A stretch of 64,000 nt of DNA from a virus (taxonomy: Duplodnaviria > Caudoviricetes): positions 17,911-81,910 of the IMG/VR virus record IMGVR_UViG_3300005076_000003, one strand, 5' to 3'. Under the pieces are notes generated by a model. That model searched no databases and had not been told where the DNA came from. It saw nothing but the letters and a program-made list of their open reading frames with translations. The position numbers and the translations under genes are program-made. Each line of letters starts with the position of its first letter. Within the stretch, counting starts at the first letter, position 1. Shown one piece after another: positions 18,771 to 63,200 of the stretch.

Positions 18771-19269
18771 TAATCTTCTCCTTCATTATTACTTCAAGTA
18801 TTTCGTCCATACTGTGTGTTCGCTTTAGTATGAACTTTTTAAATATTAACTTACGTTGAGTTCCATTGCAACCTTTTTCTTCATTAAAATGCAATAAAAT
18901 ATTCTGTTTCTGTTTTTCATTTAGTTTGTTGAATTGAACTTGAAGTTTCTTAATGAATGCAGGGTGTAAATACTTTTGCTCGTGTTCCTTGTCAAGATAC
19001 TCAGCACAACCTCTAAGGAAGTCTGAAAGTGTACCTTCATACCACCACTTTATATAACGAATATAAGCGTTTTCTATTTTACCCAATAAAACATTAGTCT
19101 GTCGGTGTAACACTCCCCTAACAAACTGTGTATTATGGTCATGATCAAGTACAGCTTGGTTTGGTGGTATCGCAAGACCCGTAATTAAGTCAAGCCCCTC
19201 TTGTTCAATAAGTAAATCTTCTCGAACTTTCTGAACATCTTTCACTGAATATAAATGTTTTGGATTCAC
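18751..19269 (-). CDS. Recombination endonuclease VII-like
   Basis: CLITG-like LITG, VLDHDH..QFVRGVLHRQTNVLLGKIE. Confidence 0.8.
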   Translation of the reverse strand: MNPKHLYSVKDVQKVREDLLIEQEGLDLITGLAIPPNQAVLDHDHNTQFVRGVLHRQTNVLLGKIENAYIRYIKWWYEGTLSDFLRGCAEYLDKEHEQKYLHPAFIKKLQVQFNKLNEKQKQNILLHFNEEKGCNGTQRKLIFKKFILKRTHSMDEILEVIMKEKINELPIV

Positions 19270-19850
19270 TTTTTAACCTCCCACAATAACAAGGCTTCGA
19301 AAACATGGTTATCTAACATATCTTTCCACTCTAAAGCAACCTCTTTAACATAAGCTTCTTTAAAATTTTTATACGAGATAAAAGCTTCCTCTGGATTATC
19401 AAAATATCCCAAGTGTTTCTTTTTTCCTTTATACATACAATCTGCTTTGAATAACCCAGTACGTTTGTAAAAACTAACACCTGTTGGGAATTTCCCTTTC
19501 GATGTTACCTTGTTAGTGATTAAGCTATTAATGGCTTTTGGTATGAAACAACAAGTTTCCTCTGAATATAGGTGACTGTCTCCTAATAAATCTTTATCTA
19601 ACTCAAACCCATTCTGTAAAAAACCTTTTTGTGTTTTACACCAATTGTCAAAGGAAGAAAAAACCTTAAACCCTTCTGACACCCTACAATTCTTATAACA
19701 AACCCTCTCATACGTTCTGTAACACCGATCTAACATCCTCGTCCAGTAGCGGTAAGATTTGGTTTTAGACTTTCTTCTAGCAACAAGTTTTACATCTAGA
19801 ACACCCACACTTGCATTTGTTGGTAAAATTTCTTGATTATCTTCAATCAT
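19266..19850 (-). mobile_element. Free-standing HNH homing endonuclease gene
   Basis: W.RMLDRCY, ELDKDLL, YSEETCCFIP, AP2-like C-terminus. Confidence 0.8.
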
Positions 19851-20781
19851 TATTAACTCCTTTCATAAATAAATCCAAATCAAACACCTTACCACGCTCT
19901 TTAGTAATATAAACCAACTTACCAGTGAGGGTTAAAGCATCTTTCCAAGTATTACCATACGTTAGTTTATAGATTTCAATAACACGTTTTTTCATTTCTA
20001 TTTTAGAGTGCTTAACATCCTCTAATAACTTCTCTGCTGTATTCTTACCAATAGATTTAACCTTTACATTAAACGCTTCTCTAAGCTCTGTAGAGACAAA
20101 ATCAATGCCACGTATGAAGTCAGTGCTGTCACCAATTAACAACTGTGTACTTAGGTTATAGAAGGCTTGTATGGGGTTAATGTAGAACACGCCCAAACCA
20201 AGATTATTGTAGTTTAAGAACAAACCATGATGTCCTTCTAAATCCTTGTCAATGTAAGCTCGAATACCTAATGGGTCTAAAGCAGCATCAGCGATTACAA
20301 AATCTTCGCTCTCATAACCATGTACAACTTCAATCTTCCCTTTGTATTTGTTCAACATATAGTTGAAGCAGTGTTTGTGTAGAGCTGGTTTTGCTCCACG
20401 ATTAGATTTATATTCAGGGTAGACATCATAACGGAAATTGTCTTTACCTTGAATATACAACCTATAATCATTAACCCAATCGAAACCAACAATAGAATCA
20501 ACCTTACTCTTAACATTAGATAAAGCAAAACCGATAGTTGGTATAACAAAATCGTTTACTTCAAAGTTCTTCCCTTTTGGGTCATTTAATAAGAAATCAT
20601 CAAAAGAATTGAAGTTTTCAAACTCTTTCTTTCTACCACTTGCTTTGTGTGTAACAACACAAGAGTCTTTGGAACAAGCTGCTGCACATGCGTAGGCGAT
20701 TGTGTCACAGTCGATATATAAGTTATATTTCTGTGTTGGGTCAAACTTGGTGAAGTCATAACGACTAAAATCTCGACTCAT
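19843..20781 (-). CDS. 5'-3' exonuclease / flap endonuclease (T7 gp6-like)
   Basis: YIDCDTIAY, NFRYDVYPEYKSNR, YESEDFV, IDKDL, LLIGDSTDFI.GI. Confidence 0.85.
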   Translation of the reverse strand: MSRDFSRYDFTKFDPTQKYNLYIDCDTIAYACAAACSKDSCVVTHKASGRKKEFENFNSFDDFLLNDPKGKNFEVNDFVIPTIGFALSNVKSKVDSIVGFDWVNDYRLYIQGKDNFRYDVYPEYKSNRGAKPALHKHCFNYMLNKYKGKIEVVHGYESEDFVIADAALDPLGIRAYIDKDLEGHHGLFLNYNNLGLGVFYINPIQAFYNLSTQLLIGDSTDFIRGIDFVSTELREAFNVKVKSIGKNTAEKLLEDVKHSKIEMKKRVIEIYKLTYGNTWKDALTLTGKLVYITKERGKVFDLDLFMKGVNND

Positions 20782-20863
20782 ATTCACTCCTCATAAACAA
20801 AGAAAGGAGAACACCTGTTAGAGTATTCTCCTTGTGTTAAAACTAATTACTTAACTTAATTGA

Positions 20864-20971
20864 TTAACTATTAACAGCTTCTTCAAGCTCTAAGAACGAA
20901 TTAAGTTTAGCTACTGTTTCACCTAATTTTGATGTAGCAGTTAGTTTACCAATCTTATTCAAATCAGTCAT
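20864..20971 (-). pseudogene. 35-aa orphan, diverged duplicate of the C-terminal half of the GapR/DsbA-like gene at 21741-21971
   Basis: MTDLNKIGKLTATSKLGETVAKLNSFLELEEAVNS aligns with NNLNKVAKLKATQKLGETMLKMAEFSELVESLD. Has a GGAGG RBS inside the HNH 3' end. Confidence 0.75.
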
Positions 20972-21728
20972 TGTAGTCAACCTCCCAATTTATTAAAGCT
21001 TCATAAACTCTAGGATCAATCTGTTCTTTCCATTTATTAGCAACCTCTTTGATGTAGGTTTCTTTCGCTTGCTTGTAAGCTAGGAATGCAGACTCCTCGC
21101 ACTGGTGTAATCCTAAAAATACAGATTTACCTTTTATACTCAGAGATGCAGAATATTTTAATAAAGCTTTATTAAAATAGACACCTAAAGGTTGCTCTCC
21201 TCTGTGGTTTTTTCTTAAAGTGAATAACCCATTAATCTCTTGAGGTACAAAACAACAAGTTGTTTCACTATACACCTTATTACCTTTCACCAAAATATCC
21301 TTATCTAAGTGGAACAGTGCCCCTTTTTCATCTATAGAGTTAAAACCAACTTGCTTATTACACCAATCTTTGAAATAAGTAAAGTATTTAAAGTTATCAG
21401 ATACTTTACAATCTACGTATGTGGTACAATGGTATTGTTGAGACTTTCTTTCATAGTAACACCTCTTTAACACCTCTACCCAAACAAGATAGTGTGGTTT
21501 ATCATCTTCAGATATTGTACAAAAACCTGTTACACCAACACCGAACACGCTAGGTAACAAGTAGTCTTTTACTTCTCCTTTGTTTATGCTTGATATATCA
21601 ACACGGTATTCACAACCTGTACTTAAGAATCGTATTAGCCTTTTATTATCGTTCCCAGTCTTGCTCAATATCTTAAAAACTCCACAATTGTTGGAATGTA
21701 CAGTGTCCCCAACTCGGTATCTACCCAC
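20964..21728 (-). mobile_element. Free-standing HNH homing endonuclease gene
   Basis: W.EVLKRCY, LDKDILVKGNKVYSETTCCFVPQEIN, C-terminal EVANKWKEQID. Confidence 0.85.
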
Positions 21729-21740
21729 CCCTTATACTCC

Positions 21741-21971
21741 TCAATCTAAGCTCTCAACTAACTCTGAAAACTCTGCCATTTTTAACATAGTTTCACCCAA
21801 TTTCTGTGTTGCTTTTAATTTAGCTACCTTGTTCAAATTATTCCATTTTACTTCAGGTAATTCTTCATCTACTACAGTTTTAATATCTTTAAGTTCTTCG
21901 TTTAAAGTATCAATCTCTTGGTGAATTGAAATGATACGCTCTAGTAGTTGCTTTACTTTAGTTAAATTCAT
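21741..21971 (-). CDS. GapR / T4 DsbA-like dsDNA-binding protein
   Basis: KQLLERIISIHQEIDTLNEELKDIK helical pattern, 76 aa. Confidence 0.6.
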   Translation of the reverse strand: MNLTKVKQLLERIISIHQEIDTLNEELKDIKTVVDEELPEVKWNNLNKVAKLKATQKLGETMLKMAEFSELVESLD

Positions 21972-22040
21972 TTGTGTTACTCCTTAATTAATTTAAATAG
22001 TGGAGAGCATATTGCTACACCCTCCGTTTGTTACATCAGA

Positions 22041-23003
22041 TTAGAACGGAATTTGATTCTCGTCATCTTCTTCAGGTACAGTTGTTGGTTTTGGTTGTGT
22101 AGGTTGTTTCACTACAGATTGTTCTTGTGATTCACCATTGTTCAAAGCTTCATACGCTTCAATTGCTTTCTGCATCTTACTACCTTGATAGTTGTTAGCT
22201 TGTTTAATCTTCTTAATGATACTACCACGAATACCAGCAGCTTTAAGAGATTCAACACTCACATCATCAAAAGAAATACCCACAGGATTAACCAAAGAGT
22301 AATCAATCATTTTAGCTAAAGCAGAAGGTACAGAAGAAATCCCTTTCACATTAACATAAACCTTATCACCATCTTCTGTCTTAACAACATCAACCATTAA
22401 CGACTTACCTAAGATCAATCCAATATTGTTTAGATCATTCTTAACTGTACCATCTGTAATAGTGTTTTGACGTGTAACCTTAGCCAATTCAGTAAGCATC
22501 GAGTTAGGAGCAAATGTCCATACTCCACCTTGTTTTTGAGGTGGTACAACAGCTAACCCTAAACCTCGAATTTCTCCTTTCCAAGTTTTGTTAAGTAAAG
22601 CTCGATAAGGTTTTTGACCAATCTCGCTACCATAATCAATTACGTTACCAACAAGGTCAGCGAATACGGCAACTTCTTGACGATCTTTAGGTTGACGTAC
22701 TTGAGCATTTACAATGAATTTATCTCCTTGCTCTACAATCTTAACTTTTTCAAAATCAGATTTCTTCAACATTGTTTCTACTTGTGCTACTAGAGCTTCA
22801 GCTTCTTCTCGTGTATCAAACTCGGTTGATTTCTCAATATTAGCGGATAGTGGAGGAGTATGAATACCTAAGTCTACAATTTGAGAAATAACAGCAGTGT
22901 GGTTATCTGTTTCAACTTGTTCATTAATTGCATTCCAATTAACTTGTGGAGCGTTGCTTGAGTGTTGTGTTGTGCTACCTTGTGGTTTTAGATTAAAACT
23001 CAT
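22041..23003 (-). CDS. Putative single-stranded DNA-binding protein
   Basis: Adjacent to the polymerase; acidic tail ending EEDDENQIPF. Confidence 0.65.
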   Translation of the reverse strand: MSFNLKPQGSTTQHSSNAPQVNWNAINEQVETDNHTAVISQIVDLGIHTPPLSANIEKSTEFDTREEAEALVAQVETMLKKSDFEKVKIVEQGDKFIVNAQVRQPKDRQEVAVFADLVGNVIDYGSEIGQKPYRALLNKTWKGEIRGLGLAVVPPQKQGGVWTFAPNSMLTELAKVTRQNTITDGTVKNDLNNIGLILGKSLMVDVVKTEDGDKVYVNVKGISSVPSALAKMIDYSLVNPVGISFDDVSVESLKAAGIRGSIIKKIKQANNYQGSKMQKAIEAYEALNNGESQEQSVVKQPTQPKPTTVPEEDDENQIPF

Positions 23004-26192: not shown

Positions 26193-26963
26193 TTAGTCAG
26201 TTATTTCTACCTCATACTTCATTAAAGCTTCATAAACTCTTGGGTCAATTTGATCTTTCCATTTGTTAGCTACCTCTTTGATGTAAGCTTCTTTTGCTTC
26301 TTTGTAAGCTAAGAACGCACCTTCAGGTGTGCTAGAGTACCCAAACTTTCTACGATCTTTCCCTACATTTAATTGGGCGAAAAAGTTACCCCCTCTCTTG
26401 TCAACAGTTACTCCGATAGGATACGCACCTCTGTGGTTTTGTCTCTTAGTTAAAAGATTGTTAATCTCTCTTGGAACTAGCACACAAGTATCTTCACTGT
26501 ACACCTTATTGTCTTTTACTAAAATATCTTTATCTAAAAACCAATCATTATCTGCACCGATCTGACTAACATACCAATTTTGAAAATAAGTGTAATCTGT
26601 AAAATTGTCAGATACAGTACATCCTACATAAGTCGGGCACTTCAACTTATGATCATCAGCGTAACATCTTTGAAGCATGTTGCGCCAAGCATGGTATTCC
26701 TTTCTAATCTTACCGTTTAACTTTACAGGGGCATCGCCTACAAAACCAACCCCACACACTGTTGGAGCATACCGATCTTTAACCCCTCCTGATTTAATAT
26801 CACTAATACGAGCAATTGTGTGGTTTCCAGTGTTTAAAAATTTAACTAGAACATCATTCCATTTTCGGTAATCAACAATGATCAAATCACCGTAATTCTT
26901 TGTTGGATATACTTTACCATCTTGAATTTTCTTGTTTATTTCATGTCGCCCGTTACTTCCCAC
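26193..26963 (-). mobile_element. Free-standing HNH homing endonuclease gene
   Basis: Same family as 20964-21728; WRNMLQRCY, LDKDIL, VEITD end. Confidence 0.85.
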
Positions 26964-41931: not shown

Positions 41932-42708
41932 GTGAAAAGAGAAGAGCAATTAGCTTTGAAGAAAAGTGAATATGAGGGTAAGGTTTATCCAACAAAGAGT
42001 TATGGTGATATACTTGTGTTAGAGTATATCAACTATAGAGATGTTACCGTTAAATTTTTAAACACAGGAAACATCCGTAAAACAGCAACATCAGAAATAA
42101 GGAAAGGTGAGATCAGAGACAATGAAGCTTTTCCTGTATATGCAGTTGGTGTTATGGATATGCCTAACGAACTGAGAAGATGTCATCCTGTACCTAAAGA
42201 ATATAGCGTTTGGAATGGAATAAGACAGCGATGCTATAATGAGAATACTAGGGACAAACTTCCGTCATATAAAGACGTTGAGATGTCGGAGAATTTTAAA
42301 TTCTACTCTTATTTTAAAGAGTGGTGCAATCAACAGGTTGGATTTAACGAAGATGGTTGGCAATTAGATAAAGATATTCTTTCCAAAGGAGTTAAGCTTT
42401 ATTCTGAAGATACATGCTGTTTTGTTCCTGCTGAAATCAATTGTGCATTACCTAATAATAAGAAGGTTAGGGGAGCTTTCCCACAGGGAGTTATTTATAA
42501 TAGCACTAAGACACGTTATAGAGCTAGAATACAAAGAGGAGATAAGTGGGAATCGTTGGGTACTTATGATACACCTGAAGAAGCTTTCTATGCCTATAAA
42601 CCTGTTAAAGAAGCTCATATCAAATCTTTAGCAAACAAATGGAAAGATCAAATTGACCCTAAAGTTTATGACGCTTTAATGAATTGGACAGTTGAAATTA
42701 CAGATTGA
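41932..42708 (+). mobile_element. Free-standing HNH homing endonuclease gene
   Basis: WNGIRQRCY, LDKDIL, YSEDTCCFVP, VEITD end. Confidence 0.85.
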
Positions 42709-54753: not shown

Positions 54754-55641
54754 TTAACTAATATCTTCTATGTGTCTAAACCAAACAAAAGAAGGGCATC
54801 TCGGCTTATCTTTAGCCCCCACACTCATATAGCGAATTGATGCTAACTTTCCTAAATACTTATCTTGATTAGACCAGATTTCATACCTAAGAGCATCCGA
54901 AAAACCCGTGCCACAGTTAAATGTATCATCACCATACTTCAATACTAAACTACCTAGTGTATTTGTAGGGACTAAACCATCTTTTGCGCTACTACGTTCA
55001 GCATAACCTAATTCATCACGCTTCTGTTCATTTGTGTTGTGCATACGTTCATTAAACCCTACAACCTCAAAGTCTTCTTGTTGAAAGAACTTAAACTTAA
55101 TAGATAACTGCTCTTTAGGTGTTGATCTTCCATACTTATAAACACCATCAGGATTCCTGCCAATCAAACCTTCACCACCTTTTACTTTCTCCTTACTTAG
55201 TAACTTTGTTAGTTCTTCCTCTGTTTTAATGTACCACTGTTGTGTAGCTACCACATTAGGGAATTGATCTAATACAAGTTTGTCATTTAAGGTGTACAGA
55301 CGTTCTTTATATGTTTCTGTATTATTTGTAAAGACATCAAAAACATAATAAGTTACATTAGGTGTTCCATCTGTAGACATGACACCTGATGTTGTCTTTT
55401 GAAAAACATCTTTAGCATAAATATCACCAACGATTAGTTCACCATCAAAACCGTTGTACTCCTGTTTACCAAAAAGCTTTTGTACGTGTTTGTTGCGAAT
55501 AGGTTTTAAACTTCTGCTGTAAACAACCCCATCAATTACTAAAGCTCTAATACCATCAAATTTGGTACTTACGTAGATAGGGAATTTAATCTTATCGAAA
55601 GGTACTTCACATGATAATAGTGGGCGTATATTGTTAATCAT
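54754..55641 (-). CDS. lig: ATP-dependent DNA ligase
   Basis: STKFDGIRA (KxDGxR), FDGEL, YVFD, EGLI, KFKFF, CGTGFS, PRCPSF. Confidence 0.92.
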   Translation of the reverse strand: MINNIRPLLSCEVPFDKIKFPIYVSTKFDGIRALVIDGVVYSRSLKPIRNKHVQKLFGKQEYNGFDGELIVGDIYAKDVFQKTTSGVMSTDGTPNVTYYVFDVFTNNTETYKERLYTLNDKLVLDQFPNVVATQQWYIKTEEELTKLLSKEKVKGGEGLIGRNPDGVYKYGRSTPKEQLSIKFKFFQQEDFEVVGFNERMHNTNEQKRDELGYAERSSAKDGLVPTNTLGSLVLKYGDDTFNCGTGFSDALRYEIWSNQDKYLGKLASIRYMSVGAKDKPRCPSFVWFRHIEDIS

Positions 55642-56440
55642 TTATATCAACCTTGTAATTTAATAGTGCAACATAAGAACGTTCATCAATATCATTCATG
55701 TATTTTTGCGCTAGCTCTTTCACATATATTTCCTTTTCAACTTTGTAAGCGCTAAATGCGTCTAACTCGGTGTCAAATAGCCCCACATAAATGGGTTTAC
55801 TATATTTTTTAATGTTTGCTTGATACTTGTTTAATTTCTTATTGTAACACACGCCAATCAGGTGTTCCCCTCGTATACTGTTACTTTTTACTAGTAAAGT
55901 ATTCAGTGAATGTGGTATGAATACACATCCGTCTTCTGAATAGGCCTTGTTATTTTTAATAAGTAAATCTTTATCAATTTCAAAGTATTTTCCTTTTTCG
56001 TCTAATGAATTAAACCCCACTTGGTTATTGCACCATTCGTAAAAATATTCATACGATTTGAAATTTTCCGATACTTCACAACCCTTATATGTTGATAATG
56101 ATTTCCTTTCACTTTTACTATAAACTCGACTAAGAATTGATAACCATAGTGAATATTCTCTTATCTTCTTCCCATTCATTGATGTTGGATATTTACTACC
56201 TATGACACCCACACCATAAGCTGTTCTAACCATCTTATCTCTAACTTTACCGTATAATATATTGTCGAATTTCGCATTAGTTACCCAACCCGTATCCTCA
56301 AATTTAACACAGCAGTAACCACCACTCAACCTCTCTGTTACTGTTAAGTATCCGTAACCTTTGGTTTTTAGTTTTATATTGCCATCAATAATTTTATCTA
56401 TATCTTTTATATAGTAATTATTTAGTTTGTTACAACCCAT
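55634..56440 (-). mobile_element. Free-standing HNH homing endonuclease gene
   Basis: EIDKDLLIKNNKAYSEDGCVFIP; AP2-like tail. Confidence 0.85.
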
Positions 56441-62265: not shown

Positions 62266-63008
62266 TTAATCGTTAATTTCAACTTCATAGGTAGTAAGAG
62301 CTTCGTAAACTCTGTTATCAATTTGATCTTTCCATTTGTTAGCCACCTCTTTAATATAAGCTTCCTTAGCTTCTTTGTAGATTTGGAATGCTTCTTCTGG
62401 TGTAGAGAAAGAACCTAAACGCTTTCTCTTCTTTCGCCCCACAGATACATCAGCTTGATATTTTCCTTTCTGCTTATCAAACCAAACACCTATTGGTAAG
62501 TCGCCACGAGCAGCATCTCTTTTAATAAACAATCCGTTAATCTCTTGAGGAACAAACAACAAGCGTCTTCACTATATACTTTATTACCTTTAATTAAGAT
62601 GTCTTTGTCCAAATGCCAACCATCTTCGTTAAATCCAATTTGCTTATTACACCACTCTTGAAAGTATGGGTAATACTTAAATTTCTCTGAAACCGAGCAA
62701 TCTGCATATGTAGGAGACTTTTTGTGAAATTCACTATCGTAACACCTTCCAATCACCCCTTTCCATAGGGCATACTCTTTTAAAACTATACCACCAACAG
62801 TAGTTGAAGCATCACCAACTACACCAACACCGTGTAGGCTTGGGAATAACCTGTCTTTAACTAGTCCGTTTCTTATATGGCAGATATGTGCTGTTGTTTC
62901 ATAGTTAGTGTTTATGAACTTAACACATACATTGTGATTATTGATATACTTGGTTACTACCAAGTCGCCATATTTGATAGTTTTAAAAATCTTTCCTTCG
63001 TACTTCAT
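62266..63008 (-). pseudogene. HNH homing endonuclease gene with a single-base deletion near 62554
   Basis: TGT TGT TT GTT CCT, whereas paralogs read CCFVP. The two ORF-track pieces join into one HNH. Confidence 0.8.
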
Positions 63009-63200
63009 ACGAACCTCCCCTTTAGAATTAAGTTTAAAACACAAGTCTCCTAACTCTTATGTTTTCTTGTTTACATTTACTAGTATATGTCACTAAATTC
63101 AATACGTCAACCCCTCTAGCACACAAACATTTAAATTATTTTAAATACAGCAAAAACAATACCTTATCTAAAAACACACCATTGTTACAAAAAATAAAGC

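Follow-up and report, generated by a model that had tools for sequence, protein, structure and literature searches.

When a homing endonuclease lies inside a phage gene, the usual explanation is an intron, an intein or a split gene. A locus in an uncultured phage raises the question of how a nuclease gene could settle in the middle of a coding sequence and leave its target whole. The locus lies in a stretch of 64,000 nucleotides (nt; hereafter the 64-kb window) that is part of the 81.9-kb IMG/VR virus record IMGVR_UViG_3300005076_000003, rated complete. The original prediction, made from the letters of the window alone, listed a gene for a 76-amino-acid (aa) protein, an HNH endonuclease gene and a 35-aa fragment, and we find these three open reading frames (ORFs) on the minus strand. 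It interpreted them as a homing cassette that invades mid-gene and carries a replacement end for its target. Our analysis points the same way: the locus very probably holds an 883-bp HNH-AP2 homing cassette with a replacement gene end, inserted at codon 41/42 of a small two-helix gene. The nuclease is termed HNH254 here, and the displaced end of the gene is termed the stub. The parts of the locus are:

21741–21971, minus strand: complete chimeric 76-aa gene, weakly DsbA-like helical hairpin (intact ORF)
21849–21971, minus strand: resident 5′ half, codons 1–41, predicted helix 1 and loop (41/41 residues shared with most HNH254-less relatives; 91.7% nt identity to L012 3981–4123)
21741–21848, minus strand: imported replacement 3′ half, codons 42–76 and stop, predicted helix 2, in frame with the 5′ half (differs from the stub at 39/96 nt)
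21729–21740, minus strand: 12-nt spacer (read from the sequence)
beginning in the stop codon 21741–21743 and extending into the spacer, minus strand: GAGGAG, Shine-Dalgarno-like motif for the HNH gene, ~9 nt before its GTG start
20964–21728, minus strand: putative homing endonuclease gene of HNH-AP2 type, 254 aa, HNH254 (phrog_953, E 7.7e-59)
20966–21848, minus strand: evidently mobile 883-bp block of replacement half, spacer and HNH gene (homology breakpoints against L012)
20864–20980, minus strand: stub, read as the displaced native 3′ half, 38 aa from TTG 20980 or 35 aa from ATG 20971–20969 (native sequence resumes at ~20965)
20981–20986, minus strand: GGGAGG in HNH codons W-E-V, 9 nt before the stub ATG

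Which of the two second halves is native? Homologs of the small gene came from 13 IMG/VR loci, 14 contigs of metagenomes and 3 other loci. A single 77-codon gene is present in about 20 related loci that lack HNH254. Its codons 1–41 match the window gene (at 41/41 residues for most close relatives), and in the closer relatives its second half is 88–97% identical to the stub at the aa level. At the nt level the stub differs from the native ends of its closest relatives at 5–11 of 99 positions, mostly synonymously (89–95% identity). The in-frame second half of the window gene shares 53% of its residues with the stub and differs from it by 15 non-synonymous and 8 synonymous codon differences (59% nt identity). 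The fragment had been described as a duplicate of the gene's C-terminal half, and this is borne out: it aligns to residues 44/45–75/76 of the 76-aa protein, a match beyond chance because its E value is 6.7e-6 against the whole 81.9-kb genome and 2.8e-8 in a second scan. An extra downstream fragment in HNH-less relatives would have refuted the original prediction by its own terms; none of the HNH254-less relatives examined carries one, and their normal gene end corresponds to the fragment instead. By these sequence comparisons, the stub is the original gene end and the second half of the window's intact gene is foreign.

The edges of the insertion were located against L012, the nearest backbone without it, in which the flanking gene for a protein resembling single-stranded DNA-binding protein (SSB) is 97% and the exonuclease gene 95% identical. 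Homology to L012 ends at 21849 and restarts at 20965, and L012 has 9 nt in between, so that 883 bp replace 9 nt. The insert comprises codons 42–76 with the stop codon, the 12-nt spacer and the HNH gene; its right edge is uncertain by ~2 nt because native codon 45 shares its first bases with the HNH stop codon. One contig each from runs X3 (DNA) and X15 (RNA library) joins 20965 to 21849 with nine other letters, encoding SYS or VWS, which are native codons 42–44 of known empty alleles. The RNA-library runs, X15 included, supply nothing but contigs, from which transcription cannot be read. Empty, carrier and mosaic alleles stand side by side in the same samples, and the presence of HNH254 is polymorphic among closely related genomes. 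An assembly artefact was ruled out, the identical chimeric protein being present on 82 contigs from several sources. An independent 927-nt contig from run X3 spans 20935–21861 with one differing letter, reaching only 13 nt past the left junction.

These data also bear on a history without import, namely local tandem duplication, divergence, HNH insertion between the copies and loss of the 5′ half of the second copy. The homology of the two second halves (53% aa) would fit such a history. We disfavor it as scarcely credible, since the stub is near-identical to the native ends of relatives, the in-frame half groups with alleles of other lineages, and the site in the empty allele holds 9 nt and no vestige of a second copy.

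The cassette is evidently mobile, judging by the sequences that surround its copies. L006, a locus on another phage backbone, has the same arrangement, with 2 mismatches in ~980 nt over 21878–20898 and a 99% identical copy of HNH254; it also contains a second, different HNH gene of intergenic type (L006:1394–2128). The near-identical tract shared by the window and L006 consists of the cassette with ~30 nt on its left and ~70 nt on its right. Beyond it the flanks diverge, with ~30 differences in ~200 nt upstream of the gene, 65–70% identity downstream and 53% protein identity in the exonuclease. The first ~70 nt of the L006 stub are shared with the window stub, and its end follows the native type of the L013/L015 backbone. 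A contig from run X15 that runs from the HNH 3′ end switches ~16 nt into the stub to a third native type, KLTVTQKLG, so that three stub types (window, L006 and X15) are found behind one HNH 3′ end. Co-conversion in homing yields short identical flanks bounded by backbone-specific sequence (PMC2988022, PMC2790892), and the short identical flanks with backbone-specific borders at the cassette are as expected from this process. The near-identical block in two diverged backbones, the backbone-specific stub tails and the coexisting empty alleles support the proposal of a mid-gene homing cassette with a replacement end.

Among 133 homologs of the small gene, we distinguished three native 77-aa lineages, A, B and C. 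The 76-aa type, with the tail ...SELVESLD, occurs with first halves of lineage A (window, P0006–P0011), lineage B (P0054, P0079) and lineage C (P0045). Each 76-aa allele has a native twin that is identical at 39–41 of 41 residues in the first half (41/41 for most) but at only 17–24 of 36 in the second. Across the three lineages, the second halves of the 76-aa alleles are mutually identical at 28–35 of 35 residues and their first halves at only 22–27 of 41, with the switch always at residue 41/42. Phylogenetic comparison of the 5′ and 3′ halves with HNH-less relatives accordingly finds them incongruent across three first-half lineages. Residues 42–61 of the imported half equal native lineage-C sequence except for one residue, and its last 15 residues have no match among the sampled native lineages. 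Searches for the donor lineage in viral contigs (queries P0045 and P0079), in one metagenome scan (N-terminal patterns) and in genome contigs returned other native lineages or nothing.

The recurrence of one breakpoint speaks against a one-off accident, in which an intergenic HNH gene and illegitimate recombination of two lineages would have been followed by inheritance and shuffling, with no HNH targeting of the gene. Such an accident would draw on two features of the region: the small gene and the exonuclease gene are separated by a spacer that is a hot spot of purely intergenic HNH-AP2 genes, and the small gene is mosaic in general. It is nevertheless highly improbable. The breakpoint 41/42 recurs with three first-half lineages, in different backbones the stretches of identity at the cassette are short and end abruptly, three stub types lie behind one HNH 3′ end, and empty, carrier and mosaic alleles coexist in the same samples.

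How, then, could a homing cassette of this kind operate and spare its target? At codon 41/42, the resident first half reads in frame into the imported second half, so that a complete chimeric 76-aa protein is encoded, the resident second half being displaced behind the endonuclease gene as the stub. The suggestion that the target stays whole without splicing agrees with what we find: the chimeric gene has its own stop codon before the HNH start, and no intron family matches 20500–22300 at E ≤ 1. A group I or group II intron and an intein were rejected on the same grounds, the lack of an intron model and a gene that stops before the HNH start. In co-infection, HNH254 would cut or nick empty alleles near codons 41–45. 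Recognition probably proceeds via the conserved flanks, because codons 34–38 and 45–49 are conserved across lineages and codons 39–44 are variable. The break would be repaired from the carrier genome, with the first half as left homology arm and the stub plus downstream DNA as right arm, and the repair would copy the cassette in and recreate the architecture. The imported half would not pair with the recipient's native half because the two are too diverged (59% nt). In the carrier the site is disrupted: the left junction has 11 changes in ~30 nt, and the right junction runs into HNH sequence. Since the original site is broken up and the stub would act as right arm in repair, we take the stub to be, most plausibly, a relic with a second use as the element's downstream homology.

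Exchange between the two copies of the second half could also delete the HNH gene and leave mosaic scar alleles. Candidate scars are common, also in public runs: in L057 and P0013–P0019, AAA TGG AAT AAT of the cassette leads into native sequence, without HNH254, and further candidates are the patchwork alleles P0012 and P0006 and the 64-aa internal-deletion form P0077. A different rearrangement was seen in L069 (L069:486–928; JACCDG011628054.1, 1087 bp), where codons 1–40 of the small gene are fused in frame to the last ~106 codons of the SSB-like gene. The contig looks circular, with a terminal repeat (1–127 = 961–1087). The point of fusion lies no more than one codon from the cassette junction, and the fusion reflects either faulty assembly or illegitimate repair at the presumed cut site.

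Could the stub be more than a relic? A ribosome-binding site and an ATG had been noticed for the fragment inside the HNH 3′ end, and both are there (GGGAGG, 20986–20981, 9 nt before the ATG). On this basis the stub might encode a functional micro-protein kept by selection. As a free helix 2 it would pair with, or poison, the DsbA-like protein of its own phage or of a competitor, and such a role would be compatible with homing. In both the window and L006 the stub ORF stays open down to the native stop, no terminator precedes it, and the sole terminator of the unit lies behind it. We nonetheless consider such a function unlikely. The Shine-Dalgarno-like motif is made up of the codons for W-E-V. 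Several proteins of the HNH family have this tripeptide there, and the motif may therefore be a coding by-product. Intactness of the stub is expected since the insertion is recent (5–11 nt from living alleles), and the two full stubs seen are too few for a test of selection. A combined form, a 'helix-swap drive' in which the stub is the right homology arm and is also translated into a helix-2 peptide that interacts with the DsbA-like protein, is a similarly doubtful proposition. If true, the helix-2 peptide would favor carriers or the element over HNH-less competitors in co-infection.

Several points weigh against the homing cassette with a replacement end. The lineage B and C alleles of the 76-aa type (P0054, P0079 and P0045) are known from protein alone, and an adjacent HNH gene and stub are predicted for them. 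Some chimeras may come from ordinary recombination because the gene is mosaic in general, with lineage-B first halves joined to lineage-A second halves and with patchwork second halves (P0101, P0114 and others). The KWNN-type mosaics could be older standing polymorphism rather than scars. The cut site, the choice between a double-strand cut and a nick, and the resistance of carriers are what we infer from sequence. In HNH254 itself, the central region has a family-invariant D-K-D ... N, its first His is not conserved in the family alignment, and Pfam gives no HNH match; catalytic competence is for this reason assumed from the PHROG annotation and from the mobile behavior of the gene.

The AlphaFold2 model of the 76-aa protein, built with 36 homologs, is a helical hairpin of high confidence (predicted local distance difference test (pLDDT) score = 92.8), with helices at residues 3–37 and 43–75 joined by a loop at 38–42. 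Since the junction at 41/42 lies in this predicted loop, the cassette would swap exactly helix 2. Family-invariant residues, among them K48, L52, K57-L58-G59, T61, K64, F68 and L71, are kept in the imported half, and their retention, together with the presence of the identical protein on 82 contigs, fits a working protein. The original prediction had called the gene GapR/DsbA-like. The second part of this label stands only as a weak sequence call: the Pfam family Phage_DsbA (PF11126) scored 16.3 bits, below the gathering cut-off of 25, and gave sub-threshold matches in 24 of the 36 homologs (best E 1.4e-4). The GapR part finds no support, as neither the 76-aa protein nor the 36 homologs matched GapR/DUF2312 at E ≤ 0.1. 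The protein also matched phrog_639, annotated 'transcriptional regulator' (E 3.8e-5), and gave nothing usable in a Protein Data Bank (PDB) sequence search or in Foldseek.

DsbA of T4 is a small DNA-binding protein associated with late transcription, and its gene stands in the order 32-59-33-dsbA-rnh. The protein described here resembles it in small size and weak profile similarity, and its gene likewise lies between SSB-like and RNase H-like exonuclease genes. It differs in falling below the Pfam cut-off, and the DsbA-like label comes from sequence only, in a family without a solved structure for comparison.

The AlphaFold2 model of HNH254 (pLDDT = 91) begins with an SH3/Tudor-like barrel, continues with a central region and ends in an AP2 domain. 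Residues 178–254 adopt the AP2 fold in the model (Z 6.6, root-mean-square deviation 2.1, 57 residues aligned to 2gcc_A, the AtERF1 GCC-box domain; also 7wq5_B), and Foldseek matched this domain to 1gcc_A with a probability of 1.0. The fold-search matches listed all fall in the two end domains; the central region is a putative beta-beta-alpha-Me (HNH) core. Pfam AP2 was sub-threshold (E 0.066), and a PDB sequence search with HNH254 returned nothing. The HNH254 family is multi-copy: the window has at least six paralogs and relatives have many, and their positions vary. The other copies in the window are:

19266–19850, minus strand: HNH-AP2 paralog, 40–48% identical to HNH254
26193–26963, minus strand: HNH-AP2 paralog, 40–48% identical to HNH254
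41932–42708, plus strand: HNH-AP2 paralog, 40–48% identical to HNH254
55634–56440, minus strand: HNH-AP2 paralog, 40–48% identical to HNH254
62490–63044, minus strand: HNH-AP2 paralog, 40–48% identical to HNH254

HNH254 alone has a flanking gene-end duplicate; none was found at the other five HNH-AP2 genes of the 64-kb window. A weak duplicate signal near 26193–26963 came from antisense ORFs of polymerase and primase genes and was judged spurious. One of the five paralogs lies between primase/helicase and DNA polymerase genes. Relatives L009, L013, L015, L057, L061, L065 and L068 have other intergenic HNH-AP2 genes, 41–48% identical to HNH254, between the small gene and the exonuclease gene, which makes this spacer a hot spot for them. 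In BS46 (L001:5815–6875), a gene of the same HNH-AP2 family, gp75, is inserted at the 3′ terminus of gp74, which is annotated as DsbA and is a different gene from the 76-aa one. Compared with Phab24 (L002:6017–6575), BS46 gp75 replaces the last few codons of gp74 and the start of the next gene, without a large duplicate.

The locus stretch occurs mostly in wastewater metagenomes (14 studies). The closest cultured relatives are the Acinetobacter phages BS46 and Phab24, with 53% protein identity in the exonuclease, and the small ORFs at the same position in these two phages bear no relation to the 76-aa gene. No deposited phage matched the locus by megablast or the 76-aa protein by tblastn. The surroundings of the cassette are:

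22041–23003, minus strand: SSB-like gene, 320 aa, upstream neighbor (ORF; 97% identical in L012)
20804–20833, minus strand: terminator-like hairpin and T-run, terminator of the resident gene, now behind the stub (sole terminator-like site in 20600–22200)
19843–20787, minus strand: 5′–3′ exonuclease/RNase H-like gene, downstream neighbor (phrog_107, E 5e-33)

The exonuclease is 92–97% identical in backbones L010, L012, L014, L059 and L067, and 53% identical in L006. The terminator hairpin, with compensatory variants, also stands behind the gene in relatives without HNH254. The 320-aa upstream protein has an acidic C-terminus, ...EEDDENQIPF, of the kind typical of SSBs, and matches only PHROGs of unknown function (phrog_32668, E 4e-56); from its sequence it is a probable non-canonical single-strand DNA-binding protein. 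Between their SSB-like and small genes, L012 (3268–3981) and L010 have ~700 bp that are missing from the window, an indel polymorphism adjoining the cassette; at the corresponding position, L069 has two small ORFs, one of them hydrophobic.

Is this arrangement known elsewhere? The parallel with fungal mitochondrial homing endonucleases that had been drawn for the locus holds, since its anatomy is that of the mORF 'gene hybrids', of which Allomyces macrogynus atp6 is the prototype and atp6, atp9, cox2 and nad3 of Glomus sp. are further cases (PMC3630166). C-terminal duplications of atp6 and cob with endonuclease ORFs are also described in Endoconidiophora resinifera (PMC6279837). In Glomus atp6, an inserted C-terminus is followed by an endonuclease ORF and then by the native C-terminus, and the native copy shares 91% of its nt with relatives and 63.5% with the inserted copy (PMC3630166). 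Both systems thus have the order of gene core, in-frame foreign C-terminus, endonuclease ORF and displaced native C-terminus, with a native copy close to relatives (89–95% in the closest ones here) and an inserted copy far from it (59% here), and in both the gene parts have incongruent phylogenies. They differ in that the host replicon here is a double-stranded DNA phage and not an organelle, the nuclease is of HNH-AP2 and not of LAGLIDADG or GIY-YIG type, and the target is a 76-codon two-helix gene of which exactly one helix is swapped. Moreover, the metagenomes here show empty, carrier and scar alleles together, and one swapped half on three lineages. By analogy, the phage cassette would work like an mORF but is not of mORF lineage.

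Among phage elements, intronless homing in T-even phages (SegF, SegG, SegB and MobE) shares with our locus a free-standing endonuclease gene with short co-converted flanks and a resistant version of the target that travels with the nuclease (PMC2988022, PMC2790892, PMC2330249). Those genes are, however, intergenic, with two-sided exchange and no duplicate, whereas the cassette described here is in-gene and leaves a displaced native half. Split phage genes (mobE in Aeh1 nrdA, mobA in T4 gene 39/60 and seg in gene 43) also hold a free-standing endonuclease in a coding region without intron or intein (PMC2988022), but they yield two complementary polypeptides to be reassembled, whereas here the spare end keeps the gene whole and the leftover is redundant. 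The 'IPA-HNH' proteins gp59/gp209 of ICP1 (PMC10448857) and the 'HNN-AP2' proteins of Xanthomonas phages Xp10, OP1 and Xop411 (PMC2248197) are described as having an atypical HNH-like core and a C-terminal AP2 domain. As far as those descriptions go, they resemble HNH254 in architecture, in being multi-copy at variable positions and in lying beside replication genes, and differ in that the portions consulted of the two papers describe no carried replacement gene end. A review from 2010 on mobile elements of T4-type phages covers introns, inteins, intergenic free-standing genes and split genes, and the word 'duplication' is absent from it (PMC2988022). We found no description of a replacement-end cassette in a phage in the full-text literature, which is not proof of absence. 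The cassette is a phage variant of a known mitochondrial strategy, and the principle is known.

What the locus adds to phage biology is a fourth solution beside introns, inteins and split genes: the element brings a spare, diverged gene end. The population picture is unusually complete: alleles are found empty, occupied and scar-like, several backbones share the block, and the swapped helix is on three lineages. It explains how the halves of small phage genes can come to have conflicting histories. For annotation, the locus is a warning: a short 'orphan' ORF that follows a nuclease gene may be a gene end that has been displaced. For the little-characterized HNH-AP2 family, a 254-aa enzyme with a target of ~30 bp offers a compact, testable system in which to study specificity.

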